Below are positions 1,844 through 21,222 of a stretch of 56,796 bases of DNA, in pieces. Under the pieces are notes generated by a model that was given only the letters and a program-made list of their open reading frames with translations, did no database searches and was not told the origin of the DNA. The position numbers were made by a program, and so were the translations under genes. Numbering within the stretch: position 1 is the stretch's first letter; each line of letters opens with the position of its first letter. The DNA is from a virus (taxonomy: Duplodnaviria; Caudoviricetes), in IMG/VR virus record IMGVR_UViG_3300032225_000823, positions 1-56,796 of that record. One strand, written 5' to 3'.

Positions 1844-1854
1844 GATTTATCTCC

Positions 1855-4169: not shown

Positions 4170-4179
4170 GATTTACTCC

Positions 4180-4545: not shown

Positions 4546-4729
4546 CGTCTTGCTCCAATTGAGTTGCGAGGTCAGAGATAATTACTTGTGCCGCCAGCAG
4601 ACCCCGTGCCTGACCACACAAAAACTGATATTGCGCGAAGTCCTGTAAGTTGCCATTAACCAAACAGTCCGCGATATTGTTGCGCTCTTCTCCGATTTTC
4701 TTAATCAGATATTCAAGCGTGTCGTTCAT
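4538..4729 (-). CDS. Hypothetical protein
   Basis: 63-aa ORF translationally coupled between portal and GroES. Confidence 0.7.
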   Translation of the reverse strand: MNDTLEYLIKKIGEERNNIADCLVNGNLQDFAQYQFLCGQARGLLAAQVIISDLATQLEQDDD

Positions 4730-7290
4730 TATTCTTCCTTAGGTTTTTTGGGTTGATTTGTTTGTTGCATGCGTTGTTGGTGAGACATCTGTTCTCTTGC
4801 TTTTGCAGCGTCAAGGCCCATGCGGACACCCTCGGTATGCTGCTGCATCTCCATTTTTTGCTTGGCTTCAGATGCCTTCATGCTTATCTTTGTGCCTTCC
4901 AGCTTGTGCTGTGCATCCAGCTTCTGAGCTTCTGATGCGGCCTTAGCAACAATCTGTGCTTCTGCAATCTTTTCCTGCGACTGCATACGGGCCGTTTCAA
5001 GCTGTAGCTTGGCCTTCTCAATCTCGATTTCAGCTTGGCTTTTCTGTGCCTTAATCTGCAGGTCTTGCTGTTTGAGTTGAAGCTCTTGCATCTGCATCTG
5101 GATAAGCGGGTCTTGCTGTTGTTGCTGTGCTTGTTCTTGCTGCTGTTGCGATTGGTTCTGCTGAAGCAGTTGTTGTGCCGCTTGAGCAATCATCTTCGAG
5201 AGTTCTACTTCTACTTGTTCCGGCAGTTGTTCATCCGGGGGCGGCAGGGATACACCAAGCTGCTGTTCGATTTGTGCGCGGTAAGCAAAAGCTAAGTGTT
5301 CCGCGATGTGTGCTTGCATGGCAGCACTAATCTGTTGCGCCGCCGGTGACTGACCAACCATCTGCATAATCTTGGGGTCTTGGATAGCTGCCGTGTGCGT
5401 TTGAATATGTGCTTGATGGTCTTGGTAAATAAATGCCTTGACCGGCTTACTATTAAGAATGGCCATATTTTCAGACACAGGGTCTTTCGGCTTCTGGTCA
5501 TCCGCAGTGGGAATAAGCTTGCCGATATTCTTTACACCCATAACCTCCAGCATCTGCTTATTAAGCTCAGGTAGGTCATAAATCTGCGGGCTGGCTGCGG
5601 CCATCTGCATAACTGCTTGCATTTGCACCACTTTTTGGGCCATTGTTGCCGAATTTGGGTCTGAAACAGGGATAACTTCGACCATGTCAAAGTCTTCTTT
5701 ACGGGCCTGCCGGTCACCGATTTCGGGGTCATAATCGTATTCAGTAGGGGCATAATCTCGAATAATCGCCGCAAGAAGCTTAAATTCCTTCTTCATTGAG
5801 TAGTGAATACGCGCTTGCACTGCCGACATAATCTTTAAGCTACGTTCCAGAATAGCTAGCGTAGTACCAACCGGTGAATTAGCCGACATATCTGATGCTT
5901 GCAAATCAGCCGCAGAAGCGAAGCGACGGCCTTCATCTACAATCTGATTCATCAGCGCCATAAGAACTTGGCTGGGTTCTTTGTATGGCAGGGGTAGGAT
6001 GTTGTCTCGAATAGTGCCGCTGGGTACGTCCACATCACGCCATTCAGCCGGAGCAATCGGGGTATCGTCGCCCTTAACCCGCAGACCACGTGACTTAAAC
6101 CCGCCCGGCAGGTTAGACAGAGTGCCCGCATCCACCAACTGACGTAACAGCATCGTGCCAGACTTGGCGAACGCCCCAATCAGGTGAATCAAACCAAGGT
6201 TGTAGAAGCCAAAGCCGGGGATGTATCCGTAATGGACAAAGTGTTGGCGCTTAATCTTGGCCTTATCTTCGGGGTTCCAGTTACGGCGAATAGCCAGAAT
6301 AGTCTCAGTAGACTTCTCAATAGTCACAACATATGGCAGGGCAATACCCGTCTCGTTACCATCCTTGTCTTTGTCCTCGTCGCCCGGAAGCTCCAAGTCA
6401 ACGTGCATCTCAAGAATCTTGAACCGGTCATCCGTCGAAGCACTGAAGCCCATCTGCTCAGCAATCTTCTTCTCAACCTCGTCCATAACAAGCACGGGGT
6501 CACCAAGGTCCACATCACGATAGAACCCAGCCACCTGTAGCTTGCGTAACTCATTTTTAGTTTTGCGCATTACATGAGTAATACGCGGGGCAGTTTCTAA
6601 ATCCGATGCGCCATACGGCACTACCATATCTTCTGCAGGTACGTACACAGCGGCTTGGCGGTCAAGATACGGGTCAAAATAAATTTTCTTGAAAGCGTTA
6701 CCAGCAAGGCCCAAACCCCACAAAAGACGCTCATGCTCAGGGCGATACTCAGGCATCTTTTCCGTCAGTTGGTAGTTCATGTCGTCTTGCACACGAACTG
6801 CTGCATCTTCTTTCTCGGGGGTGTCCTTGCCAATAATCTTGGTCTTAACCGGACCCGCTGCCGGGAACGTCTCCATGATGGTTTCAGACTGGAACTTAAC
6901 AAGTGCTTCAGCAAGCAGGGGATGGTACACAGCGCAAGAGCCGGGCCACGGCTCCGTACGGTCTTCAAGCTTCAGGCCCAACAACTCAAGGCCATCTACA
7001 TAGGTCTCAAGCCAGTCACGGCGTGACGCAACGTCAGTCTCAAAATCACCCAGCAAATCACCAGCTAATTCAGTAAGCTCACCCTCATCCATATCCTCGG
7101 CAAGGTTTGCGTTGAACTCATCGTTCGTTTCCTTATCCGGCTCAAGGACAACCTCCATCCCGCCATGCTTGATGCTAACGCTTTCCGGGTCTTCAATCTG
7201 AATCTCAAGCGGCTCCATGCCAGCGGGGCTACCATCTTGTAGCGCTCCAAGACCCATAGGTGCGGGGTTAAGTGCTTTCTGAATATCCAT
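4729..7290 (-). CDS. Portal protein (P22-like, long Gln-rich C-terminal coiled coil)
   Basis: 853 aa directly after TerL; C-terminal Q-rich barrel-like region. Confidence 0.8.
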   Translation of the reverse strand: MDIQKALNPAPMGLGALQDGSPAGMEPLEIQIEDPESVSIKHGGMEVVLEPDKETNDEFNANLAEDMDEGELTELAGDLLGDFETDVASRRDWLETYVDGLELLGLKLEDRTEPWPGSCAVYHPLLAEALVKFQSETIMETFPAAGPVKTKIIGKDTPEKEDAAVRVQDDMNYQLTEKMPEYRPEHERLLWGLGLAGNAFKKIYFDPYLDRQAAVYVPAEDMVVPYGASDLETAPRITHVMRKTKNELRKLQVAGFYRDVDLGDPVLVMDEVEKKIAEQMGFSASTDDRFKILEMHVDLELPGDEDKDKDGNETGIALPYVVTIEKSTETILAIRRNWNPEDKAKIKRQHFVHYGYIPGFGFYNLGLIHLIGAFAKSGTMLLRQLVDAGTLSNLPGGFKSRGLRVKGDDTPIAPAEWRDVDVPSGTIRDNILPLPYKEPSQVLMALMNQIVDEGRRFASAADLQASDMSANSPVGTTLAILERSLKIMSAVQARIHYSMKKEFKLLAAIIRDYAPTEYDYDPEIGDRQARKEDFDMVEVIPVSDPNSATMAQKVVQMQAVMQMAAASPQIYDLPELNKQMLEVMGVKNIGKLIPTADDQKPKDPVSENMAILNSKPVKAFIYQDHQAHIQTHTAAIQDPKIMQMVGQSPAAQQISAAMQAHIAEHLAFAYRAQIEQQLGVSLPPPDEQLPEQVEVELSKMIAQAAQQLLQQNQSQQQQEQAQQQQQDPLIQMQMQELQLKQQDLQIKAQKSQAEIEIEKAKLQLETARMQSQEKIAEAQIVAKAASEAQKLDAQHKLEGTKISMKASEAKQKMEMQQHTEGVRMGLDAAKAREQMSHQQRMQQTNQPKKPKEE

Positions 7291-7308
7291 TGTTTGGTCC
7301 TTTTGCGA

Positions 7309-8847
7309 TTACATCGCGTAAAATCGTTTTTCTCTAGAGCTTCTAAATCCCGGAGTCTCGTCTTCATAATCCGACCCCAAACGCAGGAAGCCGCCGCGAC
7401 GAAAACGAAGTAATGCTTGGGTCATACTATCTACTAAGTCATCATGCTCCCCGGCTGGGAAAGACGCGACTTCTTCTACTAATTCTTCAGCCCAATTTGT
7501 ACTTGGGACCCAAACACGTCCTGATGCAAATATATCAGCAACAGCATTAAGTCGCGCAATCTTATCATTGCCTTTACTTGGTGTAAATTCTTGTACAGGA
7601 ATGCCTGCCTGACGCAATTCAAAGATTAGGGGGGAGCCTGCAGCTTTTGCTTCAACAATTAAACTATCTGGTTCCCACTCATCAAACTCTTCTTTTGCAA
7701 CCATTTTCAGCTCGGGGAACTCCATACGTCTTTTAAACGCATTTAGCAGAATAATGTTTGCCTGTGGGCGCCCTGTATCGTCGTCTTTATAGAAAACACC
7801 CCATGTTGTGCATGCTGAATAGTCGGCACGCTCGCTTTTTAGGAACGCCGTATCCCAAGACTGGATAATAAATTCACACTGCGGAGGTGTTTCTCGCTCC
7901 CAAACCTGCCACCATTCGCGTTTAACGATAGCGCTAACTTCAGATGTGGGGTCTTGCTGGTACTGCGCCATCCATTTTGAGTGGGGCAGTTCAGATTTTA
8001 GGGCCTCAAGTTCGGTTTTGGACCAGAATTGTGGCCAAAGTGGGTTTCCAGACGGCAAAATAGCCGGAAATTCAATAACTTCCCATTCTTCGCCGCTTCT
8101 TTGCGCTGCAGCCTTCAAAACCTGCCCGGTTAGGTCTTTTTTAGACCATCTAGTCATAACAACTACGATAGAACCACCCGGTTGAAGCCGCTGCCGTGGG
8201 CCAGATGTGTACCACTCATAGGTTTTGTCATAGACTTCAGGGTTTACTTCGGCCAATGTGGCCTCTTGTTCGCTGTGCGGGTCGTCAATAATCAGTAGGT
8301 CAGCACCTTTACCAGTAACTGCACCGCCCACACCAATTGCAAAGTACTCTCCGCCTCCATTAGTAGCCCAGCGACCAGCGGCCTTTGAATCAGCTTGCAA
8401 CTCAACGCCCTCAAATATCTTTCGATACTCTTCTTTATCCACCAAGTTACGGACTTTACGACCAAAACCAACAGCCAACTCTGCCGTGTGTGAAGTCTGG
8501 ATAACCTTTTTCTGTGGGAAATTACCCAAAAACCAGGCGGGAAGCAGGTACGACGCAAATTCCGATTTCGTATGACGTGGGGGCATGTTGATGATAAGGC
8601 GTTTAATTTCTCCTTTTGCCACTCTCTCGAATGCTCTGGCCATTTTTGCATGATGCGCTCCGTGGATAAACGTAGGCCAAACCTTTTGCACGAAGTGCAG
8701 GAAGTTGTTCTTTGACAGCTCTTTATCTTTTACCTTCTCGTAGTGGTCTAACTTCTCAAGAAAGTCGCGCTTCTCTCCATCCGACATAACCGGAAGCAGC
8801 TTTAGAAACGCATTGATTTCCTCTTCAGTTAGGGTCTGAATCGTCAT
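7309..8847 (-). CDS. terL: Terminase large subunit
   Basis: INMPPRHTKS Walker A, LLIIDDP Walker B, VVVMTRW motif, nuclease QSWDTA and HDDLVDS. Confidence 0.95.
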   Translation of the reverse strand: MTIQTLTEEEINAFLKLLPVMSDGEKRDFLEKLDHYEKVKDKELSKNNFLHFVQKVWPTFIHGAHHAKMARAFERVAKGEIKRLIINMPPRHTKSEFASYLLPAWFLGNFPQKKVIQTSHTAELAVGFGRKVRNLVDKEEYRKIFEGVELQADSKAAGRWATNGGGEYFAIGVGGAVTGKGADLLIIDDPHSEQEATLAEVNPEVYDKTYEWYTSGPRQRLQPGGSIVVVMTRWSKKDLTGQVLKAAAQRSGEEWEVIEFPAILPSGNPLWPQFWSKTELEALKSELPHSKWMAQYQQDPTSEVSAIVKREWWQVWERETPPQCEFIIQSWDTAFLKSERADYSACTTWGVFYKDDDTGRPQANIILLNAFKRRMEFPELKMVAKEEFDEWEPDSLIVEAKAAGSPLIFELRQAGIPVQEFTPSKGNDKIARLNAVADIFASGRVWVPSTNWAEELVEEVASFPAGEHDDLVDSMTQALLRFRRGGFLRLGSDYEDETPGFRSSREKRFYAM

Positions 8848-9439
8848 TTGTATTTTCTTCTTCTTGGACTTGGTTCTTTAGTTCGTCCAGTTCAGTATCT
8901 TCTGGGGTAACGTCGATAATATTGCTGTGAATAAGTCGCTTGACACGCTCCTTAATTGCATGTTCCAGCTCTTCGCTAGTGCGGTGCGTAACTGTGATTT
9001 CCTGCTTCTCGGTAAACAAACCAACGTCACTAATCTTACCCAGCAGCTCCAAAGCCCGTAGCTCATCTTTAACGGTGCCGCATGAAGAGATTTCAATTAG
9101 CCGGTTAGTGATGTAATGCCGAAGCTGTACCGCGTCATCTACGATTTGCTTGTCGTACACATTCAACAGCGCCGACAGGCGCACAGCCACGCCCTGCTTA
9201 TAGACATCTCCGGGTTCTTGTTCTGGATGACCGGCAAATAAGTCTTGCGCCTCGGCGGCTTCCGCCATAGTCATATCTAAAGGCATTCCCAATTCACCCA
9301 AAAGGCGCGCCGTTGTGGCACTAACCTTGACCTTCTCTTGGGGGTCGCGCGGCTCTTTGTCCGTAGGGTTTGCAGGAATAGGGTGGTCGAAGTCAGGTTC
9401 GATTTTGTGGTGCGCAACGTCGGCGGCTTTCTCAATCAT
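8825..9439 (-). CDS. Putative terminase small subunit
   Basis: 204 aa overlapping the TerL start; LRALELLGK...GLFTEK helical motif. Confidence 0.6.
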   Translation of the reverse strand: MIEKAADVAHHKIEPDFDHPIPANPTDKEPRDPQEKVKVSATTARLLGELGMPLDMTMAEAAEAQDLFAGHPEQEPGDVYKQGVAVRLSALLNVYDKQIVDDAVQLRHYITNRLIEISSCGTVKDELRALELLGKISDVGLFTEKQEITVTHRTSEELEHAIKERVKRLIHSNIIDVTPEDTELDELKNQVQEEENTNDDSDPN

Positions 9440-9771
9440 TTGTTCAGCTCTTCTTGCCGTTCATCCCAGTGAATCTTTCGGTGGCAGTTAGCGCACACCA
9501 CGACGCACTTTTTTACTTCTCTATACGCTTGGGCATACAGCCGATTTTGTATGAGTTTACTTACGTGCTTCTTATCTGGGTCGTTGCGGTTAATGTGGTG
9601 AAAGTCAATGCACGCGGGGTGGTTTTCTCCACAGCGTTCACATTTCAACGTTTTTTTGAAATCCCACCATTTCTGCTTCTGCTTTATTTGGTACGCACGA
9701 TTCCGCTCCACGCACTTTTCGCGGTTCTCTTTGTAATATTTTTTACCGTACTTTTCGTAGCTCGTACTCAT
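9436..9771 (-). CDS. HNH endonuclease
   Basis: CERCG...DFHH...CANCHRKIH; adjacent to the terminase genes. Confidence 0.85.
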   Translation of the reverse strand: MSTSYEKYGKKYYKENREKCVERNRAYQIKQKQKWWDFKKTLKCERCGENHPACIDFHHINRNDPDKKHVSKLIQNRLYAQAYREVKKCVVVCANCHRKIHWDERQEELNK

Positions 9772-9821: not shown

Positions 9822-9895
9822 AGGAGGTTGGGACTCCTATAGGGGGGTGTTTTTATATATGGGGGGTGGGATTAGGAGGAGGTTGGGACTCCTAT
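9822..9895. repeat. 19-bp direct repeat with G-tracts
   Basis: AGGAGGTTGGGACTCCTAT at 9822-9840 and 9877-9895. Confidence 0.9.
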
Positions 9896-10002
9896 GGGGG
9901 GGTCTTTTCAAAATGTGGTCTTTGACAGCGCAAATTATTGTGAAAATAGGCCGCCGGTTCCATCGAATCGTTTTTGGGGGGTCGGGGGCCGGTGGGGTCG
10001 AC

Positions 10003-10037: not shown

Positions 10038-10069
10038 GGAACAAATCGACACCGATGTCGAAGTGTACC
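10038..10069. repeat. 32-bp palindrome copy 1
   Basis: GGAACAAATCGAC-ACCGAT-GTCGAAGTGTACC. Confidence 0.9.
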
Positions 10070-10168
10070 GCGCGACTTGTAACAAAAGATTCACGCTACC
10101 TGTTGTAGGATTCTGTAGGATGACGTTGTGGCGGTCGTCGCCACTCAACACCCATAGGAGGGTACATC

Positions 10169-10792
10169 ATGAGCGCAATCACCAAGTCGTCGGGCCAGCC
10201 CGAATCCATCCTCAACGCCGCAGGCGTTGTCAATCCCTTTGCTGATATCACGGCTAATGCCAAAGTACAGGCGCAGGCGTTCGCAAAGGGCGAAAAGGCC
10301 ATTTACGTAGTCATTGATGACGCAGCGCGCACACTGGGTGACACGCCCACGTATGCGCAGTGGGAAGCCTATCGCGAGGCTTGGATTGCAGAGTCGCCCT
10401 TGGACGACCCGCAGAAGGGTTGGGAACGATTCGCCGATTTGCTGGCGTCGCGCTGCGGGCTGGCTAAACCTAAGGCGAAGGGTAAGGCCGAACGGGTCGC
10501 CAAGGGGCGCGAGGATGATGCAAAGAAGGTAGAGGCGCTCGCAGCGGAGCCGCGCGCAGTACTGGCGCAAAAGGCAAAGGCGCTATTAGAGGCGGGTACT
10601 GCGGAGGCAATCAAAGAGGTTCAGATGTTGCACAAGGCAATTGCATCGCAGGTTAAGGCCGAGACCAAAGAGGCGCAGGAATCATTTGTCGCGCTGCGCA
10701 AAGAGGTACGCGAGGCCGTAGTCGCGCTGCAATGGAACGCCGACAATCGGAAAGTACTTGAGGCCATCAGGGCGATGCTGCCAAAGGCCTGA
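10169..10792 (+). CDS. Early hypothetical protein (Ala/Lys/Glu-rich, helical)
   Basis: 207 aa, AGGAGG RBS, own terminator. Confidence 0.8.
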   Translation: MSAITKSSGQPESILNAAGVVNPFADITANAKVQAQAFAKGEKAIYVVIDDAARTLGDTPTYAQWEAYREAWIAESPLDDPQKGWERFADLLASRCGLAKPKAKGKAERVAKGREDDAKKVEALAAEPRAVLAQKAKALLEAGTAEAIKEVQMLHKAIASQVKAETKEAQESFVALRKEVREAVVALQWNADNRKVLEAIRAMLPKA

Positions 10793-10807
10793 TTCACCCG
10801 CACCACG

Positions 10808-10832
10808 ACCCCCGCTACGGCGGGGGTTTTTT
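10808..10832 (+). terminator. Rho-independent terminator
   Basis: ACCCCCGC-TACG-GCGGGGGT-TTTTT. Confidence 0.85.
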
Positions 10833-10919
10833 ATTGCCCTCGCGCAGTGAGTGACCGGAGGGAACTGGTGAGAAAGACGCCGCAGCCCACGCGCGTACTG
10901 TGCGCTCGAATTCGGTGTT

Positions 10920-10951
10920 GGAACAGAACGACATCGGTGTCGAATTGTTCC
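10920..10951. repeat. 32-bp palindrome copy 2
   Basis: GGAACAGAACGAC-ATCGGT-GTCGAATTGTTCC. Confidence 0.9.
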
Positions 10952-11374
10952 ATTGGATTCTGTAGGATTTCGAATTGTTCCATAAACAGGCCTTTTGTTC
11001 CAAATGTTCCAAGCATTGTTCCAAGTTAAGTCGTTGATTATAAAGGAATGTTCCAATGTTCCACGTTTTTCGGAGAGTATGAGCATATTCTGGAGAAAAT
11101 TATTCTGTCGAAGGTATTTTGCAGGAAATAAAAATTTTCCCGCACGAGGGTACATTTTCGAAAAAACGTGGAACATTGGAACAATACCTCTCTCTCTATC
11201 TATATTTTTTAATAAATAATAATAAAATGAACCACTTACGCGCGCCCCACCATCGACACCCTATTGTTCCATCCCACGTACCCTAATGTTCCCCCTGGAA
11301 CAAATCAAACCATAAACTTAGTGGGATTTTATTTTGTTCCATAGCTACACACATCCCATGGAACAATTGGAACA
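10920..11374. repeat. TGTTCC/GGAACA iteron-like cluster; candidate replication origin
   Basis: 16 hexamer copies counted by eye; 22-bp perfect inverted repeat 11049-11070/11162-11183; AT-only tract about 11201-11228. Confidence 0.6.
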
Positions 11375-11401
11375 ATTAGACTTATAGGACAGCACAACTA
11401 T

Positions 11402-11430
11402 TTGACAAACGCGTGGGAATGTGATACAAT
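11402..11430 (+). promoter_or_regulatory. Strong sigma70-like early promoter
   Basis: TTGACA-N17-TACAAT with TGn extension. Confidence 0.75.
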
Positions 11431-11779
11431 GTCCGAAGGACACGTTGGGAATCGTCCTGTGTTCTACCTTCATCAACCCGCCACCCATGTGGCACAAAAC
11501 GACAGGAGTGTCGAAATGTTCCAGACAGAACAACCCACCGTTGACATCACCAACCACATCCTGCAACTACGCGAGCTAACCACAAAGACCAAGGAGGCCA
11601 ACGAGAAACTAAACCGAGTCCTGCATCTGCTCGACACACGCAAGCAACACATCAACCTATTCCGCAATCTTGCGGTTCAACTGCAACAACACCTTATACA
11701 TCCGCGTGAGCGCAACGTACCAATCCTAATCCGTGCTATCGAACACGCCCTCAACACCACCGAGACCAAGGGAGACTGA
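11402..11779 (+). CDS. Early hypothetical protein (true start probably downstream of the promoter)
   Basis: ORF with coiled-coil C-terminal half, stop coupled to the next gene's RBS. Confidence 0.5.
   Translation: MTNAWECDTMSEGHVGNRPVFYLHQPATHVAQNDRSVEMFQTEQPTVDITNHILQLRELTTKTKEANEKLNRVLHLLDTRKQHINLFRNLAVQLQQHLIHPRERNVPILIRAIEHALNTTETKGD
11491..11522. repeat. 32-bp palindrome copy 3
   Basis: GGCACAAAACGAC-AGGAGT-GTCGAAATGTTCC. Confidence 0.8.
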
Positions 11780-11781
11780 GA

Positions 11782-12132
11782 ATGACCAAGCAAACCAATT
11801 GGGAACAAATCGACACCGAAGTCGAACTGTTCCAACACAACCAATCCCACGCCACCGACGTGCCGCACCACGCATACACACAAGCAATGGCAAGAAGGGC
11901 ACACCGCTACGCGCTTATGACCGCCGCACAACACGTAGGCGAGATTGATTGGAAGTACACCAAGCAAGACTGGACTGTGCTTAAAGCAGGGGACAACGGC
12001 GAGACCATGTTCGTATCCGTTCGCATGGCCATTCCCAAAACCGAATACGAGCGCAGGGTACGCGACTACGAGCGTATGCAGAAGATGCGCAACGCCAAGG
12101 CAGCAAAGCGGGAGGCCAAGGATGGTGACTGA
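11782..12132 (+). CDS. Early hypothetical protein
   Basis: 116 aa, GGGAG RBS. Confidence 0.7.
   Translation: MTKQTNWEQIDTEVELFQHNQSHATDVPHHAYTQAMARRAHRYALMTAAQHVGEIDWKYTKQDWTVLKAGDNGETMFVSVRMAIPKTEYERRVRDYERMQKMRNAKAAKREAKDGD
11802..11833. repeat. 32-bp palindrome copy 4
   Basis: GGAACAAATCGAC-ACCGAA-GTCGAACTGTTCC. Confidence 0.9.
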
Positions 12133-12289
12133 TGACCACAACCACATCAGGAACTTTCACCAACGCAAAGCTGCAATCGCCGACGAGAACAAACGCAAGC
12201 GGTTACTAGCTGAGAACAACCAGACATACATCAAGTATGTGTTAGAGGCCAAGGGGAAAAAACGTGAAACTGTACGACGAGCAGGATGA
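12122..12289 (+). CDS. Small hypothetical protein
   Basis: GGAGG RBS before ATG 12122, 55 aa. Confidence 0.55.
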   Translation: MVTDDHNHIRNFHQRKAAIADENKRKRLLAENNQTYIKYVLEAKGKKRETVRRAG

Positions 12290-12398
12290 GAACAAGCCGA
12301 GCAAGGCAGAGCAACGCCTTGTGTATTTCGTAGCTATCACGGCCATCGTTGTGGTGGTTGTGCAAATCGCCAAAGCGTTTGGCGCATGGGGAGACTGA
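12264..12398 (+). CDS. Small putative membrane protein
   Basis: GTG start, 44 aa with hydrophobic LVYFVAITAIVVVVVQIA; fills the gap between coupled genes. Confidence 0.5.
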   Translation: MKLYDEQDENKPSKAEQRLVYFVAITAIVVVVVQIAKAFGAWGD

Positions 12399-12399
12399 G

Positions 12400-12573
12400 A
12401 TGATTGACGAAGATAACTTCTACACGGGCCTGATGGTTGGTGTGGTGTTTACTGTTCTGGTGATTCTGTCACTTATTAACATCGGTGTTGACTGGCAACT
12501 AAAAGCCTTGGACTGTCACGCGTCTAGCAGCATGGGTGTTGATGCGTACGTCTGCTATCGAGTGGGGGTGTGA
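12400..12573 (+). CDS. Small putative membrane protein
   Basis: GGGAG RBS; hydrophobic LMVGVVFTVLVILSLINI segment. Confidence 0.6.
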   Translation: MIDEDNFYTGLMVGVVFTVLVILSLINIGVDWQLKALDCHASSSMGVDAYVCYRVGV

Positions 12574-12574
12574 G

Positions 12575-12790
12575 ATGGTTGAGAAAGTTTTTAACTACGC
12601 GGAGCTTGCGCTGATTGAAGATTGCCTTGACTCCGAACGACGCAGCAACAGCACGGAACTCAATGGCCTGATGACAGGAACCGCCGAGCATTACGAGAGG
12701 CTGCACCGCATCCGCTGGCTGCAAACCCGAAACAAACTAATCGACAGTTTGCTGAAGAAGATTCGGCAAGACATGATGATGGAGGCATGA
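12575..12790 (+). CDS. Hypothetical protein
   Basis: 71 aa, tightly packed in the early operon. Confidence 0.6.
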   Translation: MVEKVFNYAELALIEDCLDSERRSNSTELNGLMTGTAEHYERLHRIRWLQTRNKLIDSLLKKIRQDMMMEA

Positions 12791-12791
12791 C

Positions 12792-14108
12792 ATGGGATAC
12801 CACAACAGCTACGGCAACCACCCGCTATCTGGAGCTTTCATACCAAATATACGTACATACAACGAGGCATATAAACGGTATCAGGACACCAAGCCTATTC
12901 GTGGCAGCAACCCTGAGATTCGGCCCATCGGTGCGCGTAGATATAAACACTTGGAACTGCGCATGGACAAGGACGAGAACATCGAGTGCGTTCTCTACGG
13001 TTCGGCGTGTGTTACGTTTCACAAGCAGACCGACACCATTCTTCTCAAACACAACGGTTGGATAACCCCAAGTACTGCTGCGTTCATAGACAGGATTCTG
13101 CCGTCGGACTACGGCACGGTGTATATCGACAGAGGCAAGATGATATTCGTCGAGGCTAACGCCCACGCGCGTTCGTCACTAGAGTTTGCACAATACCCTG
13201 TAACCGACAAGTACATCATCGGCTCGACTGACCCGCTGGTTATCAACCTCAACACCCTATCGTCGGTGTTCAACAGCAACCACGGCGGCACACACATTCT
13301 TACCGTGGAAGGTGAGCATTACTGCAACTGGCACATGGACAAGAAGGAATGGCAAAAGGTATGCAAGGAAGTTACACCAACCATCGCGCCGTTCATGGAC
13401 TACTGTCAAACACTTAATGCAATGCGGCAATACGACAACGGCGATATGCGGCGCGTTGGTCTTGAGGTTTTGGGAATACCACCAGACACGCCAACTTCAG
13501 AACTGCCAAACATCGTGCCCGAATTGCGTAAGTTGTTTGAGGGTTCCGACCATCCTTACTGGAGCAGACAGATTACGGAAGATTATTTGGTTGAGCATTT
13601 CATCATGGCAATCTGTCATCGAGCGCACTCAATCAGGATGTCGCAAATCCATAGGGCAAACACGGCGACGCTAAGTTACCTGACCAAGCAACCGTTCAAC
13701 GGACTGCCAGCTATTCTTGAGAATGATTCAGCGCAGCTTGGCATGAACGCGAACAAGCTATTGCAGATGATGCAAGGCAACGACCCGACTGAGTGGCTGA
13801 AGGCGCACATCATTACCATCTTTAGTGGGCCACGTGGTATTGCATATGCATGGCCTGATTTACGCGGTGTAGCACCCGAGCTTGCTAAGTGTCGCAATGA
13901 CAGTATGTATGAATTATTGGAAGAAACGATAAAGATTTGCTACGCCGACAGGATATTCAAGCCCGCCGAGAAAGAGGCTAAGAACTCGCGCAACCAAAAC
14001 TTTATCTTCGTAAACGCCTTCACCGAATATAAGAAGGTACAGAACAAATCGACAGCAATGTCGATGTGTGGCAGCAATGAAGTTAGCAGCAGTGAAGTTA
14101 GCAATTAA
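12792..14108 (+). CDS. Early hypothetical protein
   Basis: 438-aa ORF with GGAGG RBS; precedes the AAA+ gene. Confidence 0.8.
   Translation: MGYHNSYGNHPLSGAFIPNIRTYNEAYKRYQDTKPIRGSNPEIRPIGARRYKHLELRMDKDENIECVLYGSACVTFHKQTDTILLKHNGWITPSTAAFIDRILPSDYGTVYIDRGKMIFVEANAHARSSLEFAQYPVTDKYIIGSTDPLVINLNTLSSVFNSNHGGTHILTVEGEHYCNWHMDKKEWQKVCKEVTPTIAPFMDYCQTLNAMRQYDNGDMRRVGLEVLGIPPDTPTSELPNIVPELRKLFEGSDHPYWSRQITEDYLVEHFIMAICHRAHSIRMSQIHRANTATLSYLTKQPFNGLPAILENDSAQLGMNANKLLQMMQGNDPTEWLKAHIITIFSGPRGIAYAWPDLRGVAPELAKCRNDSMYELLEETIKICYADRIFKPAEKEAKNSRNQNFIFVNAFTEYKKVQNKSTAMSMCGSNEVSSSEVSN
14041..14072. repeat. 32-bp palindrome copy 5
   Basis: AGAACAAATCGAC-AGCAAT-GTCGATGTGTGGC. Confidence 0.8.
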
Positions 14109-14147
14109 TCCAACGTCTTATCTACTATCTATTCAGGAGAACTCGCA

Positions 14148-15212
14148 ATGTCACAAGTCGCAACCAACGGCGCCGTCACTCTCAAAGAAGCGGTTGACCT
14201 TATCTGCGCCAACCCGCGCAATACCTTTCACTTAGTCGGCACGCCGGGTATCGGTAAGACCGCGATGCACAAGGTTATCGCCGAGCGCCTTAACATGAAG
14301 CCTATCTACATGGACGTACCTAACCTAGAGATTGGCGACATCGGCATCCCCATGCCCAACCATCAGACGCGCACCACACAGTTCTACCCCAACGAGTTCT
14401 GGGGATTCCATCTGGACGAGCCGCTTTGCATTTTCCTTGACGAGTTTACCAAGGGCGAGAATGGCGTGAAGAACACCCTGCACCCTGTGCTGACGCACCC
14501 GCGCCGTATCGGTGGGCTAACCATACATCCTGATTCTGTTGTAATTACTGCGGGTAACTTTAGCGGTGATGGTGTTGGCGATGTGATGAAAGCACACAGC
14601 CGCAATCGCTTGACTGAATTGCCAATCAAGAACCCCACTACGCAAGAATGGATTGACGATTGGGCGGTACACAACGACATCGTGCCGGAAGTTATGGCAT
14701 GGGCGCGTGAGACTCCGCAAATCTTCCAAAGCTACAAGGACGCCGCGCAAGCTGACAACCATTACAACTACAACCCCAAGCGTCCGCAAGCTGCGTTCTG
14801 TTCGCCGCGTTCTGTTGCTGGTGCATCGACGATTGTGCGTAACCGTGACAAGTACACGACCAACGCATTGATTACTGCACTAGAGGGAACCATCGGCTAT
14901 TCGGGTGCGCGTGACATGGTGGCCTACATCCAGATGGCAGATGAACTTACACCGTGGGCTGAAGTTATTGCTAACCCCTCGACTGCACCTGTGCCGAAGC
15001 ACGTGTCTGCGCTTTGCATCATGGCGTTCGGTGCGGTTATGCGTATCGACAACAAGAACATCGGCAAATGGTTTGAGTATCTCAAGCGTTGCCCGAAGGA
15101 ACTCCAGTCCATCTTCTGTTTGACTGCAAGCAAGAACCCGCAGAAGAAAGATGTCCTGTTCAGTAGCAGCGCGTTTGTTACGTGGGCGCGTGACAACGCT
15201 TACTTGTTTTGA
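14148..15212 (+). CDS. MoxR-like AAA+ ATPase
   Basis: GTPGIGKT Walker A, IFLDE Walker B, TAGN sensor 1, RNR Arg finger, SPRS sensor 2. Confidence 0.85.
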   Translation: MSQVATNGAVTLKEAVDLICANPRNTFHLVGTPGIGKTAMHKVIAERLNMKPIYMDVPNLEIGDIGIPMPNHQTRTTQFYPNEFWGFHLDEPLCIFLDEFTKGENGVKNTLHPVLTHPRRIGGLTIHPDSVVITAGNFSGDGVGDVMKAHSRNRLTELPIKNPTTQEWIDDWAVHNDIVPEVMAWARETPQIFQSYKDAAQADNHYNYNPKRPQAAFCSPRSVAGASTIVRNRDKYTTNALITALEGTIGYSGARDMVAYIQMADELTPWAEVIANPSTAPVPKHVSALCIMAFGAVMRIDNKNIGKWFEYLKRCPKELQSIFCLTASKNPQKKDVLFSSSAFVTWARDNAYLF

Positions 15213-15220
15213 CCCCCAAC

Positions 15221-15252
15221 GGAACACATCGACATTGGTGTCGATGTGTTCC
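15221..15252. repeat. 32-bp palindrome copy 6 (perfect 14-bp arms)
   Basis: GGAACACATCGACA-TTGG-TGTCGATGTGTTCC. Confidence 0.95.
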
Positions 15253-15271
15253 AACAACAAAGGAAAGAGTG

Positions 15272-15562
15272 ATGAACGAGAAAGAAATGATAGCGGCGAT
15301 GATTGTCGCCGCCAACACAGCAATTAAAAACCTATCTGAGTCTGAGGCCGAAGTCTTAGATGACGCGGGTAACCCTGTGTCTGCACACGTGGTCGCAATA
15401 ATTGCAAGCACAACGCTTGCCGGTATGTACGCAGTACAAGCAGGAATATCTAGAGAGCTATTTGTCAGGGGATTGGCGTCTACTTATGACGCTATCAGAG
15501 ATAGCTACGACGAAGCAGTAGAACTTTTACAAGAACAAGGAGAGACGAAATGGGTGCAGTAA
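15272..15562 (+). CDS. Hypothetical protein
   Basis: AGGA RBS, 96 aa between the AAA+ and vWA genes. Confidence 0.6.
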   Translation: MNEKEMIAAMIVAANTAIKNLSESEAEVLDDAGNPVSAHVVAIIASTTLAGMYAVQAGISRELFVRGLASTYDAIRDSYDEAVELLQEQGETKWVQ

Positions 15563-16848
15563 ATTTTGGTAACAACCTGACCGAAGAGCAGCGCGTCGAG
15601 CGCGTTATCTATAAGGTACTGAGCAGCCATCGCTGGATTCTGTTTTCCGGTTTGCTCATGGTCGGAACTATTGAAGTAGTCGATGACCACCCGACTGCAT
15701 ACACCGATGGCATCAACATCAAGCTGGGCCGTGAGTTTATCCGCGTCCTCAATGACAAGCAGTTGTTGTTTGTGCTTATCCACGAGCTTATGCACATGGC
15801 GTATCGGCACACGATTGTGTGGCGTAGTCTGTACGAGCGTCACCCGCAAGTGGCGAACATGGCTTGTGATTTTGTTATCAATCTGCAAATCGTTGACATG
15901 GACCCGCATGGGAATGAAGTCGAGTTCCCTACTGATGAGAACGGCGAGCTACTCGGTTGCTATGACGAGCAGTATCGGGACATGGACGCCAAGCAAGTGT
16001 TCAACAAAATCTATGAGGACAACGGCCTTGAAGATGGGCAGGGAACTAGCGAGGGATGGGATGTCGTATCACCCGATGGTCAAAATAAACCAAATAGTTT
16101 TGGCGAATTGCTTAAAAAGCAGTTTGACGAGCATGGGTGGGATGAAGCCAAGGCTTTGACGCCAGAACAAGAGGACGAGCTGCGCGAGAAGATTGACGGC
16201 GCATTGCGGCAGGGTGCGCAGTTGGCTGGCAAGCTGAACGGTGATGTGTCGCGTGACATCAAGAAACTTCTCGCACCCAAGGTCAAGTGGGAAGATGTAC
16301 TGCGTGACTTTGTGAAAGCCACGTGCAAGGGCCACGACGATGCAACCTTCAAGCGTTTCCACAAGCGGTTCGTAGGCGTAGACATTTTCCTACCGACTAC
16401 CATCGCGCAAAAAGTTGGAAAAGTTTTGGTTGGTCTCGACACAAGCGGTTCTATTGGTGATACGCTGTTGGGTAGGTTCCTCGGTGAGTTGACTTACATT
16501 GCAGACGAAGTAAAGCCCGACGGAATCATCCTGCTGTATTGGGATACCGAAGTTGCATCGGTGGAACAGTACGGCAAAGAAGATATGCACCAAATCGCAT
16601 CATCTACCAAACCTGCGGGAGGCGGCGGTACTAACCCTGTATGTGTCCCTGTGTGGATGGCAGACGGTGCGAACAAGGATGTAGTCGAGGATGTGGTCGC
16701 AGTTGTGATGCTTACTGACGGCTACTTCTACAACGAGGACGGCGGCTCTGCATTTGAGCAGTTGGGAGTGCCTGTGTTGTGGTGTGTGGTGGGGAACGAA
16801 TCGTTCGTTCCTTCTTATGGTGTTTCCGTTTACGTTGACAAGGAATAA
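15550..16848 (+). CDS. Metallopeptidase-vWA protein (DUF2201-like)
   Basis: TAYTDG, HELMH zincin motif, NMACD; MIDAS DTSGS, GGGT, LTDG. Confidence 0.85.
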   Translation: MGAVNFGNNLTEEQRVERVIYKVLSSHRWILFSGLLMVGTIEVVDDHPTAYTDGINIKLGREFIRVLNDKQLLFVLIHELMHMAYRHTIVWRSLYERHPQVANMACDFVINLQIVDMDPHGNEVEFPTDENGELLGCYDEQYRDMDAKQVFNKIYEDNGLEDGQGTSEGWDVVSPDGQNKPNSFGELLKKQFDEHGWDEAKALTPEQEDELREKIDGALRQGAQLAGKLNGDVSRDIKKLLAPKVKWEDVLRDFVKATCKGHDDATFKRFHKRFVGVDIFLPTTIAQKVGKVLVGLDTSGSIGDTLLGRFLGELTYIADEVKPDGIILLYWDTEVASVEQYGKEDMHQIASSTKPAGGGGTNPVCVPVWMADGANKDVVEDVVAVVMLTDGYFYNEDGGSAFEQLGVPVLWCVVGNESFVPSYGVSVYVDKE

Positions 16849-16852
16849 TGAA

Positions 16853-17068
16853 ATGAGACAAGGCAGACATGATGGCCGCGTGGGCCTGAGCGTATCCCCA
16901 GATGCAGTTGCAGTTCTGGACGAGGTTCGTGGGGAGTTGATGAAGCAGCTAGGGTTTGCGCCGTCTTACGCGCAAGTGGTTCTACACATTTGCCTTGAAT
17001 ACCAAAAGGCTAAGAAGCAAGAACAAATCGACACCAATGTCGATGTGTACCAAGGAGATGACAAATGA
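16853..17068 (+). CDS. Small hypothetical protein, possibly DNA-binding
   Basis: 71 aa; strand-helix-helix-like pattern (RVGLSVSPDAVAVL...PSYAQVV). Confidence 0.55.
   Translation: MRQGRHDGRVGLSVSPDAVAVLDEVRGELMKQLGFAPSYAQVVLHICLEYQKAKKQEQIDTNVDVYQGDDK
17020..17051. repeat. 32-bp palindrome copy 7
   Basis: AGAACAAATCGAC-ACCAAT-GTCGATGTGTACC. Confidence 0.9.
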
Positions 17069-17952
17069 ACACACAGGGATTCGAACCGCAAAGCGAACAC
17101 ATTAGCATTGCTTCGAGCGCGATGTTAATTGAACTGTCCGTCAAGGTATGGGGCGCAAGCAAGACAGACCGCAAGGTTAGCGAGGAAGTTGACATTGCGA
17201 AAAAGACGCAGGCACGAGGCGGTAAGTACGAGAAAGACCTGATGGCTGGCACTCGGTTGTTGCATGATATTACTAAGTGCGCGGCGCGTATCCGTAGCTG
17301 GAACGTACAAGTAACCCTACCGTGGAATGACCAAGGCCTGCGATTGCTTCCGTCGTCCAAGTTTTTTGATTACATGGCGCAGCTAGACAAGCACCGCACC
17401 GAATATGAGGGCATGGTAGATGATTTCCTCAATCGGTACGACGAGATGGTGTCTGCTGCTGCGATGAACCTTGGCGAGATGTTTGACCGCAGCGAGTACC
17501 CAAGCGCGGAGGAAGTCAAGAAGAAGTTTGCGTTCGCGTTTGCTATTTCTCCAGTACCAGTCTCGGGTGATTTCCGCGTAGACATTGGCACTAAGGCAAA
17601 CGAAGAACTTGTCAAGCAGTTTCAGGAAGCGTTCGACTCTCGCATCAGTGAGGCTATGTCGGAGTGTTGGCAACGACTGCACAACTGCCTCACGCATTTG
17701 AGTGACCGACTCCAAGTTTCGGATACTGGAACGAAGACGGTGTTTCGGGATTCGCTTATGAGCAATGCGCAAGAACTGTGTGACCTACTCAAGCACATGA
17801 ACTTGACCGGCGACCCGAAACTTGAAGCCGCACGTAGGGAACTTGCTGACGCAATCTTTGGCTTGGACTCGCAGGATATGCGACATGACACCGATATGCG
17901 TACCGAAGTTAAGTCCAAGGTGGACGAGATTCTTTCAAAGTTTCAATTCTGA
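17065..17952 (+). CDS. Hypothetical helical protein (DUF3150-like)
   Basis: 295 aa; TLPW..G.RLLP and FDRSEYP motifs; neighbour of the AAA/vWA pair; AGGAG RBS. Confidence 0.65.
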   Translation: MNTQGFEPQSEHISIASSAMLIELSVKVWGASKTDRKVSEEVDIAKKTQARGGKYEKDLMAGTRLLHDITKCAARIRSWNVQVTLPWNDQGLRLLPSSKFFDYMAQLDKHRTEYEGMVDDFLNRYDEMVSAAAMNLGEMFDRSEYPSAEEVKKKFAFAFAISPVPVSGDFRVDIGTKANEELVKQFQEAFDSRISEAMSECWQRLHNCLTHLSDRLQVSDTGTKTVFRDSLMSNAQELCDLLKHMNLTGDPKLEAARRELADAIFGLDSQDMRHDTDMRTEVKSKVDEILSKFQF

Positions 17953-17984
17953 AGTAAACATTTACCAACAACGGAGAAGTGAAA

Positions 17985-19004
17985 ATGTCATCTAGCAACC
18001 GTATCAAACTCGCACGTAACACTAACCGTATGCACCCCATGCTTGACCTTGCAGTTAATAAACTGCTGAAGCAAAACTCTGACTTTATCTTTGAGAGTGA
18101 CAACGGCACTACTGAATACGGCTGTGAGTCTGTGACTGATGGGTTTAAGATATTCGATGGGGTAGATTTCGTCGGCACTATTGATTACGGCAGACAATAC
18201 GGCAAAGCTAACGCCGAAGGACACGTTGACCCCGCCTTTGGTATCGGCTCGCCCAATGTCAACAAGCGTCGCGGTAATCGCAGCAAGATAATCACCACCG
18301 ATTTGAACGCAGCGGTTCGCCATGCCAAGAAGCTGATGTTTAAGCCAAGCATAGACAAGATGCTTACCGAAACACTTAACTCGCTGTATCGAAAAATTGA
18401 TTCTGCAACCGACAGCGCAGAACACGTTATGCAACGGTGCGTATCAATTAAATCGCATGGGCTTGCGGAATGGCTGGCTGAAACTTTGACTTTCGAGGAC
18501 AACAAAATCGTCGGCCTTGACAAGCTAACCTTTGCGGATATACCAAAGGCTTTGAACTTTAGTGTTACGGAAGAACTATTCCCCGCCGCTCGTAAGTTTA
18601 GTATTCTCAAAAAGGTTAGAAAAGATTTCCCCGAAGCAGTAGGTAACGGTGACGCAGCGTTTGCGATTAGATTGCGTAACGGCGGCATCCGATTGTTTGA
18701 GACTATCCTGCAAAAAGAAGGTGAGAAGATACCTGACGGCACTAGCTTGATTCCAGTCGTTCGCTTTGCATACTCAAACATCACAAAACACAACGTGTGC
18801 GCAAATATGACGGACTATCATAATTTGGAGAGTGCGCCGGATTGGGTGAAGGAAAAGATTGCTACGCTCACACTAGCGGAGACCGACCATGCAATACCGA
18901 ACATCGGCATTAAGGTACAAAGCAGCGACGAAAACTATCTGTTTTTTATCTATCGAAAGCAATTTGTGGAGAACGAAACAAGTGAAGACACAACCACGGT
19001 TTGA
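17985..19004 (+). CDS. Hypothetical protein
   Basis: About 340-aa ORF with GGAG RBS. Confidence 0.75.
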   Translation: MSSSNRIKLARNTNRMHPMLDLAVNKLLKQNSDFIFESDNGTTEYGCESVTDGFKIFDGVDFVGTIDYGRQYGKANAEGHVDPAFGIGSPNVNKRRGNRSKIITTDLNAAVRHAKKLMFKPSIDKMLTETLNSLYRKIDSATDSAEHVMQRCVSIKSHGLAEWLAETLTFEDNKIVGLDKLTFADIPKALNFSVTEELFPAARKFSILKKVRKDFPEAVGNGDAAFAIRLRNGGIRLFETILQKEGEKIPDGTSLIPVVRFAYSNITKHNVCANMTDYHNLESAPDWVKEKIATLTLAETDHAIPNIGIKVQSSDENYLFFIYRKQFVENETSEDTTTV

Positions 19005-19170
19005 AGTCCACGACGATGACGGCGCTCTGCGTAAGTTTTATATACGCAAAGAGGCTGAACAGTATCTAAATGGCAAGTGCGGCCTCAGGTTGGTAGTCCA
19101 ACCCCGCTTGAAAAAGGAAAAGCAAGTGGCTAGTATTAAATCGGTAGGTGCGGAAGCTGCGCTCTACTGA
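18982..19170 (+). CDS. Small hypothetical protein
   Basis: GTG start with GGAG upstream, overlapping the previous stop. Confidence 0.5.
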   Translation: MKTQPRFEVHDDDGALRKFYIRKEAEQYLNGKCGLRLVVQPRLKKEKQVASIKSVGAEAALY

Positions 19171-19291
19171 TGACTGTAATCATTCCCCACGGCATAGGTG
19201 CCTAGCAGATGTTGCTATGAACTGGGGGGCTAAAAAACAAGCCCGACTCTCCAATACCGCGCGGGGGCGCGGAATCTGCTAACCCCCACAT

Positions 19292-19344
19292 AGGCCACCT
19301 TCGGGTGGCCTTTGCATTTCTGACCGCCTTCGGGCGGTTTTTTT
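19292..19344 (+). terminator. Tandem UUCG hairpins, second with U-tract
   Basis: AGGCCACC-TTCG-GGTGGCCT and GACCGCC-TTCG-GGCGGTT-TTTTT. Confidence 0.8.
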
Positions 19345-19350
19345 ACGTCT

Positions 19351-19382
19351 GGAACATTTCGACATTGATGTCGATTTGTGCC
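19351..19382. repeat. 32-bp palindrome copy 8
   Basis: GGAACATTTCGAC-ATTGAT-GTCGATTTGTGCC. Confidence 0.9.
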
Positions 19383-19391: not shown

Positions 19392-19420
19392 TTGACATCG
19401 GACGGTTGGCCGCGTAGTGT
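19392..19420 (+). promoter_or_regulatory. Sigma70-like promoter
   Basis: TTGACA-N17-TAGTGT right after the terminator and palindrome 8. Confidence 0.6.
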
Positions 19421-21133: not shown

Positions 21134-21222
21134 GCCAGAGTGGTGAAATCGGTAGACACAGCAGACTTAAAATCTGCCGACCATAACAGGTTGTGCCGGT
21201 TCGATTCCGGCCTCTGGCACCA
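21134..21222 (+). tRNA. trnL: tRNA-Leu(UAA)
   Basis: Acceptor GCCAGAG/CTCTGGC, anticodon arm GCAGA-CT-TAA-AA-TCTGC, long variable arm, GGTTCGATTCC T-arm, encoded CCA. Confidence 0.95.

Follow-up and report, generated by a model that had tools for sequence, protein, structure and literature searches.

What do eight copies of one 32-base-pair (bp) palindrome do in the early region of an uncultivated phage? The copies lie in the IMG/VR virus record IMGVR_UViG_3300032225_000823 (Caudoviricetes), which was analysed in its entirety and is hereafter called the window: a linear sequence of 56,796 bp, approximately 90% complete. An initial annotation, made from these letters alone, had listed palindromes starting at 10038, 10920, 11491, 11802, 14041, 15221, 17020 and 19351 (hereafter, sites 1–8) and had offered operators, recombination sites and RNA hairpins among the explanations. 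Our analysis shows that the motif is a lineage-wide, syntenic set of four-block sites in an uncultivated phage clade, with conservation of letters and not of pairing. We propose, with moderate confidence, that the palindromes are dispersed double-stranded DNA operators for a phage protein that controls the early module.

The palindromes are genuine and non-random. The core ACA-N3-CGACA-N5-GTCGA-N2-TGT has eight matches on the plus strand of the window (starts at 10041, 10923, 11494, 11805, 14044, 15224, 17023 and 19354), compared with a mean of 0.00 in 100 dinucleotide-preserving shuffles, that is, none expected by chance. The full 32-bp consensus, searched over the whole record with up to three mismatches, returns the same eight places and no others, so that the positions first reported and the core said to be invariant in all eight both hold. 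Looser patterns add little: CGACA-N5-GTCGA with one mismatch gives extra low-quality matches only at 42423 and 52137, and the form with 18 specified bases, allowing up to three mismatches, gives a single extra poor match at 39925, itself at three mismatches. Because the window is the entire virus record, the claim that no copy lies outside 10.0–19.4 kb can be upheld for the full record, replication and structural regions included.

The geometry of the sites is 14+4+14, with two conserved blocks per arm: GGAACA-NN-TCGACA-NNNN-TGTCGA-NN-TGTTCC. The central four bases read, from site 1 to site 8, CCGA, TCGG, GGAG, CCGA, GCAA, TTGG, CCAA and TTGA, and the form YCRA, in either orientation, fits seven of the eight (the exception is site 3). 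The asymmetric centre that the initial annotation saw in both orientations is 4 bp long and not 6, and the 13+6+13 geometry built on it falls away; in relatives, the centre varies without conservation. Sites 4, 5 and 7 lie in reading frames and, as first described, are read differently, as GAA-CAA-ATC-GAC (E-Q-I-D) in sites 4 and 7 and as AAC-AAA-TCG-ACA (N-K-S-T) in site 5; the remaining sites are non-coding.

A scan of IMG/VR with a 16-base core found 34 stretches, 22 of which share proteins with the window, and every stretch with more than one site falls among these 22. Related stretches and contigs carry L and G numbers here (L047 and G006 are the same). With up to two mismatches allowed per site, G001, which is approximately 90% identical to the window in nucleotide sequence, has 7 sites, and the more distant relatives G002, G003 and G004 have 9, 8 and 10, respectively. 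In all four, the sites are restricted to the homologous early module, even though G002 runs on for 18 kb through the replication genes. The lineage consensus, AACA-WWW-CGACA-N4-TGTCG-WWW-TGTT, is carried by relatives at approximately 45–55% protein identity, and a distant clade, G005/G006, whose MoxR protein is 44% identical, has CGGACA-NN-TCGACA-N3-TGTCGA-NN-TGTCCG at the same borders. Synteny persists where the MoxR, DUF2201 and DUF3150 proteins are 39–54% identical: sites stand before the MoxR gene, before the DUF3150 gene, where the copies stop 0–10 nucleotides (nt) ahead of the Shine–Dalgarno sequence, and in the gap that separates the Hjc-like gene's promoter from the preceding terminator. 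This last arrangement, in which an intrinsic terminator, the site and a sigma-70-like promoter follow one another, is seen in the window, in nine of nine relatives' contigs and also in G006 (17565).

Cultured phages gave no megablast match to the region. By terminase, the nearest ones are the Pelagibacter phages HTVC027P and HTVC023P, DSL-LC04 and 023Pt_psg01, and the motif is absent from the two of these that were scanned, DSL-LC04 and 023Pt_psg01, whose only link to the window is the terminase. In the literature searched on DUF3150 phages and HTVC023P we came across no description of these sites, although supplements might hold annotations of them, and the text of PMC9599517 makes no mention of palindromes, inverted repeats, iterons, MoxR, a replication origin or promoters. 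The window sequence itself occurs in 15 further DNA runs from 10 studies labelled lake water, freshwater or metagenome, of which one run, X2, was aligned.

What is conserved was assessed on 50 distinct sites, each oriented with transcription. The blocks AACA, CGACA, TGTCG and TGTT are invariant or nearly so, which is partly a consequence of how the sites were collected; columns outside the search pattern are still conserved, with A at column 3 in 46 of 50 sites, T at column 30 in 41 and A at column 24 in 44. The three-base spacers consist of A and T (GC content 9%) and the centre is free. Opposed spacer positions form Watson–Crick pairs in 11 of the 50 sites for columns 7 and 26, in 12 for columns 8 and 25 and in 24 for columns 9 and 24, and mismatches in the stem are of the wobble type in 6 cases versus 54 others. 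When the hairpin is imposed on the alignment, 72.4% of cells pair, against a shuffled mean of 74.3%, and the covariation score is 0.044, against 0.059 in the shuffles, 482 of 500 of which score at least as high. The retention of the four blocks as letters is therefore the signature of a protein reading DNA and not of a selected stem.

A contrast set shows what selected stems look like with a similar pattern. Searching the 18-base pattern in one genome per species, across 185,579 species, gave 62 stretches with 48 distinct 28-mers. These bacterial matches are true hairpins, among them repetitive extragenic palindromic (REP)-like repeats in Gallionella and Desulfosporosinus and terminators, and their spacers have a GC content of 62%. 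All three spacer pairs are complementary in 30 of the 48, compared with 2 of the 50 phage sites. None of the 62 stretches lies near homologues of the window's proteins, and phage-type spacers, A/T-rich and non-complementary, occur among the bacterial matches in one doubtful case (L077). The phage sites thus differ from terminator and REP hairpins in their A/T-rich spacers, and they have no T-run on the sense strand and only weak minus-strand matches in a terminator scan. Folded as RNA, all eight sites do form hairpins, at −10 to −23.8 kcal/mol with z-scores of −1.9 to −5.5, and no Rfam family matches them. The compensatory or wobble-kept pairs and the single transcribed orientation of a structured RNA are not found; some relatives' copies of the site-8 type are inverted. 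Short dyad words whose letters, and not their pairing, are conserved are what operators present. Hairpin promoters of the N4 type were also considered and rejected, as a search of the large open reading frames (ORFs) turned up no RNA polymerase, the 2301-aa protein described below showing HATPase and DarB-like regions only.

The sites occupy a distinct part of the genome. Structural and packaging genes (portal, large terminase, HNH protein, tail fibres and a 2301-amino-acid (aa) protein) fill the minus strand at 1–9771 and 32490–56796, and a block of plus-strand genes extends over 10169–32224. All the sites fall in the first 9 kb of this block, among small genes without assigned function and the genes for a MoxR-like AAA+ ATPase (14148), a metallopeptidase/VWA protein of the DUF2201 family (15550) and a DUF3150 protein (17065). 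A double terminator and a promoter set off the replication block that follows; it encodes an Hjc-like nuclease, PolA, an exonuclease and a helicase, then a small helix–turn–helix (HTH) protein (29126) and a 941-aa primase-helicase. Among the ORFs scanned, none was found to encode an RNA polymerase, integrase, immunity repressor, transposase or member of another recombinase family; this search assigned no family to g7 or g13.

Sites 1, 2, 3 and 8 stand near gene starts or beside predicted promoters and terminators. Site 1 (10038–10069) lies in the divergent intergenic region, 100 nt before the ATG of g1 (10169); its equivalents are just before the g1-like gene in G006 and within the 5′ end of that gene in G002–G004. 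Gene g1 itself (10169–10792, plus strand) encodes a 207-aa early protein, predicted to be all-helical, and lies between sites 1 and 2 in both the window and G006. Site 2 (10920–10951) is 3′ of the g1 terminator, at the left edge of an array of hexamers described below, with equivalents in L017, L032, L038 and G006. Beyond the array, a sigma-70-type sequence on the plus strand at 11402–11430 (TTGACA-17-TACAAT with a TG element, 11 of 12 consensus matches) is likely, from its sequence, to be the main early promoter, and equivalents of it are seen in relatives. Site 3 (11491–11522) follows this promoter by approximately 55–85 nt; its centre contains the Shine–Dalgarno sequence AGGAG, and the start codon of g2, an ATG, falls in the right arm. 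In G001, a 46-codon ORF begins at the ATG within the site. Site 8 (19351–19382) separates the double terminator from the promoter that serves the Hjc-like/replication operon. The promoter, at 19392–19420 on the plus strand, 9 nt past the site, is a sigma-70-like TTGACA-17-TAGTGT that was read by eye and is sub-threshold in the promoter scan; relatives have TTGCAA/TTGACA-17-TATACT/TACATT in the same place. Among the RNA-library contigs of runs X17–X19, some end at 19287 and 19307 (two runs) and others restart at 19462 and 19492 (two runs, one of them shared), which, given short and sparse contigs whose gaps carry no meaning, is a weak hint only.

Sites 4–7 have no recognisable promoter nearby. 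Site 4 (11802–11833) is inside g3, 20 nt past its ATG, and reads E-Q-I-D-T-E-V-E-L-F. Site 5 (14041–14072) lies in the 3′-terminal part of g7, ahead of the gene for the MoxR-like ATPase, and syntenic copies precede the MoxR gene in L028, L039, L038, G002 (4520) and G006 (11446). Site 6 (15221–15252), a perfect palindrome, falls between the stop codon of the MoxR gene and g9 and is polymorphic. Site 7 (17020–17051) is at the 3′ end of g11 and stops directly before the Shine–Dalgarno sequence of the DUF3150 gene (ATG at 17065), with syntenic copies in L007, L014, L028, L039, L040 and G006 (15644).

Several further features were seen around these sites. In the divergent region between the HNH/terminase operon and g1 there is a direct repeat of approximately 27 bp in two copies, at approximately 9822–9849 and 9875–9902, of the form AGGAGGTTGGGACTCCTAT(A)GGGGGG, and a minus-strand promoter sequence, TTGCAA-16-TATAAT, at 9807–9780. 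The first gene past the site-3-type palindrome in L017 (6780–6960) and L032 (4645–4800) encodes a small CxxC...CxxC zinc-ribbon protein, where the window has an unrelated 87-aa protein. Just past site 5, at the 3′ end of g7, a tandem direct repeat comprises two copies of GAAGTTAGCA (14073–14110). A conserved box resembling GGGAAAGTCCCTATAAAATA stands between the site-8-type palindrome and the −35 hexamer in L014, L015, L022, L023, L024 and L039 and is absent from the window. For the conserved MoxR/DUF2201/DUF3150 module (14148–17952), the nearest cultured homologues of the ATPase are in N4-like and other large phages, at 24–26% identity.

Between site 2 and the early promoter lies a second element made of related letters, which the initial annotation had overlooked. 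This non-coding region of 449 bp (10952–11400, GC content 37%) contains 14 isolated GGAACA/TGTTCC hexamers, compared with 0.23 expected at the background rate. Its left part has seven TGTTCC copies, one of them the right arm of site 2, and its right part has five GGAACA and three TGTTCC, extending up to the early promoter and site 3. Relatives follow the same plan: after a site-2-type palindrome come a forward array of the ATGTT type, a central segment and a reverse array, and then a strong promoter with a site-3-type palindrome behind it; in L017 and L038, the forward and reverse arrays are cleanly separated. A word inside the array, TAAGTCGTTGATT (11027–11039, plus strand), recurs as TAAGTC(C/G)TTGATT in six of six array regions (window, L007, L017, L032, L038 and G006) and would fit the IHF consensus. 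In the window and G001 the array word is identical to the palindrome arms; L032 shows a partial match, and only an ATGTT/AACAT core is shared elsewhere. A strict covariation of arm and array words was tried and dropped, as it fails in G002 and is inapplicable to G006; the shared core was retained.

Origins of the staphylococcal pathogenicity islands (SaPI) are defined by six to twelve penta- or hexanucleotide iterons; hexanucleotide iterons flank an AT-rich centre, facing opposite ways, and a self-loading Rep recognises them through its winged-helix C-terminal domain (PMC9371898). The array, and not the palindromes, has this iteron layout. The position differs: the SaPI origin is directly downstream of rep (PMC9371898), and in the window 18 kb separate the array from the primase-helicase gene downstream of it. 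The SaPI-like layout, together with a primase-helicase that matches a SaPI structure, leads us to read 10952–11400 as a putative replication origin or regulatory hub, by analogy. Because the outer-arm word of the palindromes is the unit of an array that resembles a SaPI origin, the palindromes may link early-gene control to the origin region. Two other repeats were noted here. The equivalent non-coding region of G006 contains nested long inverted repeats (9337–9402/9669–9734 and 9484–9508/9565–9589) around a C-rich segment. In the window, an identical 14-mer, GGATTCTGTAGGAT, occurs at 10108–10121 and 10955–10968, after sites 1 and 2 at differing distances, and both copies are kept in G001.

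The set of sites is not static. A 6.8-kb DNA contig from run X2, a lake metagenome (depth 11), skips 15216–15250, which is site 6 as a 35-bp unit with the 5-bp repeat CCAAC at both edges, and in G001, which also has no site 6, the intergenic segment that holds it is replaced relative to the window. Also in G001, a 148-bp insertion carrying the 46-codon ORF starts exactly at the 3′ edge of site 3, and the same junction, at 11522, is found in X2 and in an RNA-library contig of X17. The presence or absence of site 6 and the differences in G001 indicate that single sites are gained or lost as units; for site 6, insertion and slipped deletion would both suit the edges. Reversed, site 6 equals site 7 at 29 of 32 positions. 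The other sites of the window have no flanking duplications, and the mosaic borders at g6 and g13, between the window and G001, have no palindrome. The idea that a palindrome had inserted in frame into relatives' DUF2201 gene was set aside; the site lies in a hypervariable linker and forms no clean insertion relative to the window.

Which protein might read the sites? The likeliest candidate is the small HTH protein encoded at 29126–29395 on the plus strand (89 aa, XRE-type, with weak Pfam HTH matches), which the initial annotation had also put forward. Its gene is just upstream of the primase-helicase gene in all three clades (window, G002 and G006), and it has 39 homologue clusters. In an alignment of 24 sequences, the window's and 23 from relatives at 40–86% identity to it, the helix–turn–helix is near-invariant, and Y55, W57, F58 and G60 are invariant. 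An AlphaFold2 model has a predicted local distance difference test score (pLDDT) of 87, and 50,697 cultured phage records contain no match to the protein. The XRE-type fold, the placement of the gene, a near-invariant HTH that parallels the invariance of the inner arms and the absence from cultured phages together make this protein the best candidate binder. Beside the HTH and primase-helicase genes, a 304-aa protein (28219–29133) is conserved in G002 and G006; it contains a cysteine-rich PDCWS...C..CP...GSG...ACR motif and belongs to a PHROG family without an assigned function.

The primase-helicase (29399–32224, plus strand; 941 aa) is a fused protein of the SaPI PriRep-like/P4-alpha-like kind that falls in PHROG primase/helicase families. 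It matches the PDB entry 8tch, 'pathogenicity island protein', with E = 4.3e-10 over residues 510–816, the ATPase core only, and is a candidate binder of the array and perhaps of the outer arms. In the C-terminal region, the window shares 35 of 59 residues with G002 and 19 of 59 with G006. Two early proteins were also looked at. The all-helical model of g1 (pLDDT 75) has no fold match at E ≤ 0.001 and lends no support to g1 as the binder. The 438-aa g7 protein has no Pfam, PHROG or PDB sequence match and one close homologue; in the Atlas search it hits unnamed viral clusters, with scores of at most 0.88. An arrangement of site 8 like that of a class I activator was dropped, because the distance from the site to the −35 hexamer varies among relatives (9, 21 or 34 nt), in steps of 12–13 bp that do not match the helical phase.

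If the palindromes are operators, the four blocks AACA, CGACA, TGTCG and TGTT, with A/T-rich spacers and a free 4-bp centre, would let a dimer or a pair of dimers read successive grooves. The HTH protein would be made from the replication operon and then occupy the palindromes, both beside promoters (at site 1, past the strong early promoter at site 3 and ahead of the replication-operon promoter at site 8) and at early-gene borders (sites 4–7). From there it would switch early transcription off or adjust it. That a protein binds, which protein it is and in which direction it regulates are steps that we infer.

A number of observations weigh against this proposal. Sites 4–7 are inside the operon and far from recognisable promoters, and several relatives' sites end 5–9 nt before a Shine–Dalgarno sequence, a placement that would suit an RNA element equally well. 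In G006, five sites have a 3-bp centre and one has a 4-bp centre, which is unusual for a rigid dimer. On the sense strand, spacers lean to A on both sides (AA/AA in 22–24 of 50 sites), a polarity that a symmetric dimer leaves unexplained and that may reflect the A excess of the strand (AT skew of approximately +0.15). The relation of arms to array is uneven, as the array of G002 is of the TGTTC type and most of its arms are of the TGTTA type, and a hexamer array is missing from G006. Natural variants can do without site 6. As for the HTH protein, its top fold matches (ClgR, DdrO, C.Esp1396I, CylR2, ImmR and Aca7) are weak, with E of 0.36–1.4; its gene is 10–19 kb from the sites; and co-occurrence is unable to single it out, because every gene of this phage family co-occurs with the motif.

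Some of the same evidence can be read as replication biology. The palindromes might be accessory sites of the PriRep-like primase-helicase, paired inverted iterons that act in secondary loading, in origin handcuffing or as a replication-timing sink. We consider this unlikely, yet several points favour it: the outer arms GGAACA/TGTTCC are the hexamer of the 14-copy array in this very phage, that array has the SaPI origin layout (PMC9371898), the primase-helicase matches 8tch, and its C-terminus is closer to that of G002, with its TGTTC array, than to that of the array-less G006. The invariant inner CGACA/TGTCG, however, does not occur in the array words; in G002, the arms are a poor match to the array, and G006 keeps the palindromes without a hexamer array; the placement at gene borders points to control of expression more than to replication; and the SaPI origin directly follows rep (PMC9371898), whereas array and primase-helicase gene are far apart here. 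A compromise, to which we give a lower probability still, would make the sites composite switches, with an initiator word in the outer arms flanking an HTH operator in the inner arms and with the 32–35-bp unit copy-pasted into intergenic gaps, as at site 6. If it were true, new early genes would be wired into a replication-coupled shut-off by a kind of mobile regulatory cassette not described for phages.

Turnover of the sites also invites the thought that they are small mobile or recombination-prone cassettes, spread by copy-paste in the early region and marking junctions of gene swaps, with little function of their own. The 35-bp presence/absence unit with CCAAC edges at site 6, missing in G001, fits this, as do the resemblance of reversed site 6 to site 7, the G001 insertion at the edge of site 3 with its shared junction in X2 and X17, the alikeness of the window's free centres in both orientations and the persistence of sites where the genes between sites 3 and 5 vary among relatives. 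We nevertheless regard this as improbable, to the same degree as the composite switch: there is no transposase or recombinase family in the scanned ORFs, other sites lack flanking duplications, a 5-bp repeat is also expected from slipped-strand deletion, and the g6 and g13 mosaic borders carry no palindrome. Selfish spread would leave block conservation, synteny over 45–55% protein identity and confinement to one module unexplained. Action in RNA, as hairpins that would direct processing, stability or translation of the polycistronic early transcripts, in the last case as translational operators, seems quite improbable to us, and the processing hairpins suggested by the initial annotation find no backing in the alignment: there is no covariation, variable columns pair less than in the shuffles, most spacer pairs lack complementarity and the mismatches are not of the wobble type. 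In favour of an RNA role are the folding of all eight sites, the many copies that end 5–9 nt before a Shine–Dalgarno sequence and approximately 18–20 nt before an ATG, the Shine–Dalgarno sequence in the loop and ATG in the stem at site 3, the tolerance of both 3- and 4-base centres and the A bias of sense-strand spacers. The positions of sites 2 and 8, however, are between terminator and promoter, some site-8-type copies are inverted, and the outer-arm word is also found singly in arrays and the sites match nothing in Rfam. Finally, a host transcription factor or nucleoid protein recruited by the phage could explain inner arms that are invariant across clades whose proteins have diverged to approximately 40–55% identity. 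This we think very improbable, as the scan of 185,579 species' genomes gave unrelated perfect hairpins in its 62 stretches, with L077 as the doubtful exception. Operators for a phage protein remain the reading that we favour.

Elsewhere in the window, a tRNA-Leu gene (anticodon TAA) lies at 21134–21222 in the plus-strand block. The 2301-aa protein (32490–39395, minus strand) has a GHKL-type ATPase domain (HATPase) at residues 601–709, a weak WLM/metallopeptidase-like segment at approximately 1131–1201 and a DarB-like C-terminal third, and may be an ejected virion protein.

The phage lineage is widespread, uncultivated and of freshwater, and its gene regulation is otherwise undescribed. It now gains a set of candidate parts: a conserved operator word that is easily recognised, two host-type promoters, an early module with mapped sites, and candidates for the origin and the regulator. 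This circuit can be tested in vitro without a host, and the motif together with the array provides a sequence signature for locating early regions and origins in related metagenomic contigs. If the relation of arms to array is real, one short word would serve both origin recognition and early-gene control.

Among known systems, the operators of P1 C1 and the stoperators of L5 gp71 are asymmetric sites of 13–17 bp, and stoperators are oriented with transcription and spread across the early and late operons of temperate phages. Our sites resemble them in the many copies of a short word at promoters and in gaps within operons, kept among relatives and presumably served by one phage reader. Unlike them, these sites are 32-bp four-block dyads in both orientations, confined to one module of approximately 9 kb in a phage with no integrase or repressor module in the scanned ORFs. 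They show neither the single asymmetric orientation nor the spread over early and late operons of a temperate phage that mark stoperators (the polarity of centre and spacers runs both ways, in the window as well as between relatives), and of the label 'operator or stoperator' in the initial annotation we keep only the first word.

In length and build, closer parallels are the operator of C.Esp1396I, which takes two dimers of a small HTH protein on approximately 35 bp, and the 28-bp inverted repeat of QacR. Like these, the palindromes are dyads of approximately 30–35 bp with more than two blocks, and a small HTH protein of the XRE type is the candidate binder. Those operators each occur once, at a single promoter, whereas eight sites are dispersed here; the fold match to C.Esp1396I is weak (E of approximately 1.2), and no relation to the operator sequences is known. 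Short elements at variable early-gene borders, with presence/absence polymorphism and some copies in reading frames, recall the promoter–stem-loop elements (PeSLs) of T4-type phages, which join a promoter to a stem-loop, and the Rickettsia palindromic elements (RPEs) that insert into genes. Unlike PeSLs, the sites have no promoter of their own and no hairpin covariation, and they are strictly conserved in the sequence of their four blocks. They differ as well from tyrosine-recombinase core sites and attC sites, as the centre is 4 bp (3 bp in G006) and not 6–8 and no recombinase family is found in the scanned ORFs, so that the recombination-site geometry once suggested for them does not hold, even though turnover of sites is real.

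The use of one word in two settings has its nearest counterpart in iteron plasmids, where Rep proteins such as RepE of F and RepA of pPS10 bind as monomers to iterons and as dimers to an inverted-repeat operator located at the rep promoter. As in those plasmids, the same word occurs singly in an origin array and as inverted pairs elsewhere; unlike here, they have one operator, and no winged-helix Rep of that family was found in the window. SaPI origins add a further comparison. Dispersed palindromes made of two inverted iterons and an inner dyad do not feature in that description of SaPI origins (PMC9371898). The two systems have in common opposed iterons around an AT-rich centre and, on the same element, a fused primase-helicase, whose C-terminal region is a putative DNA-binding region in the phage.

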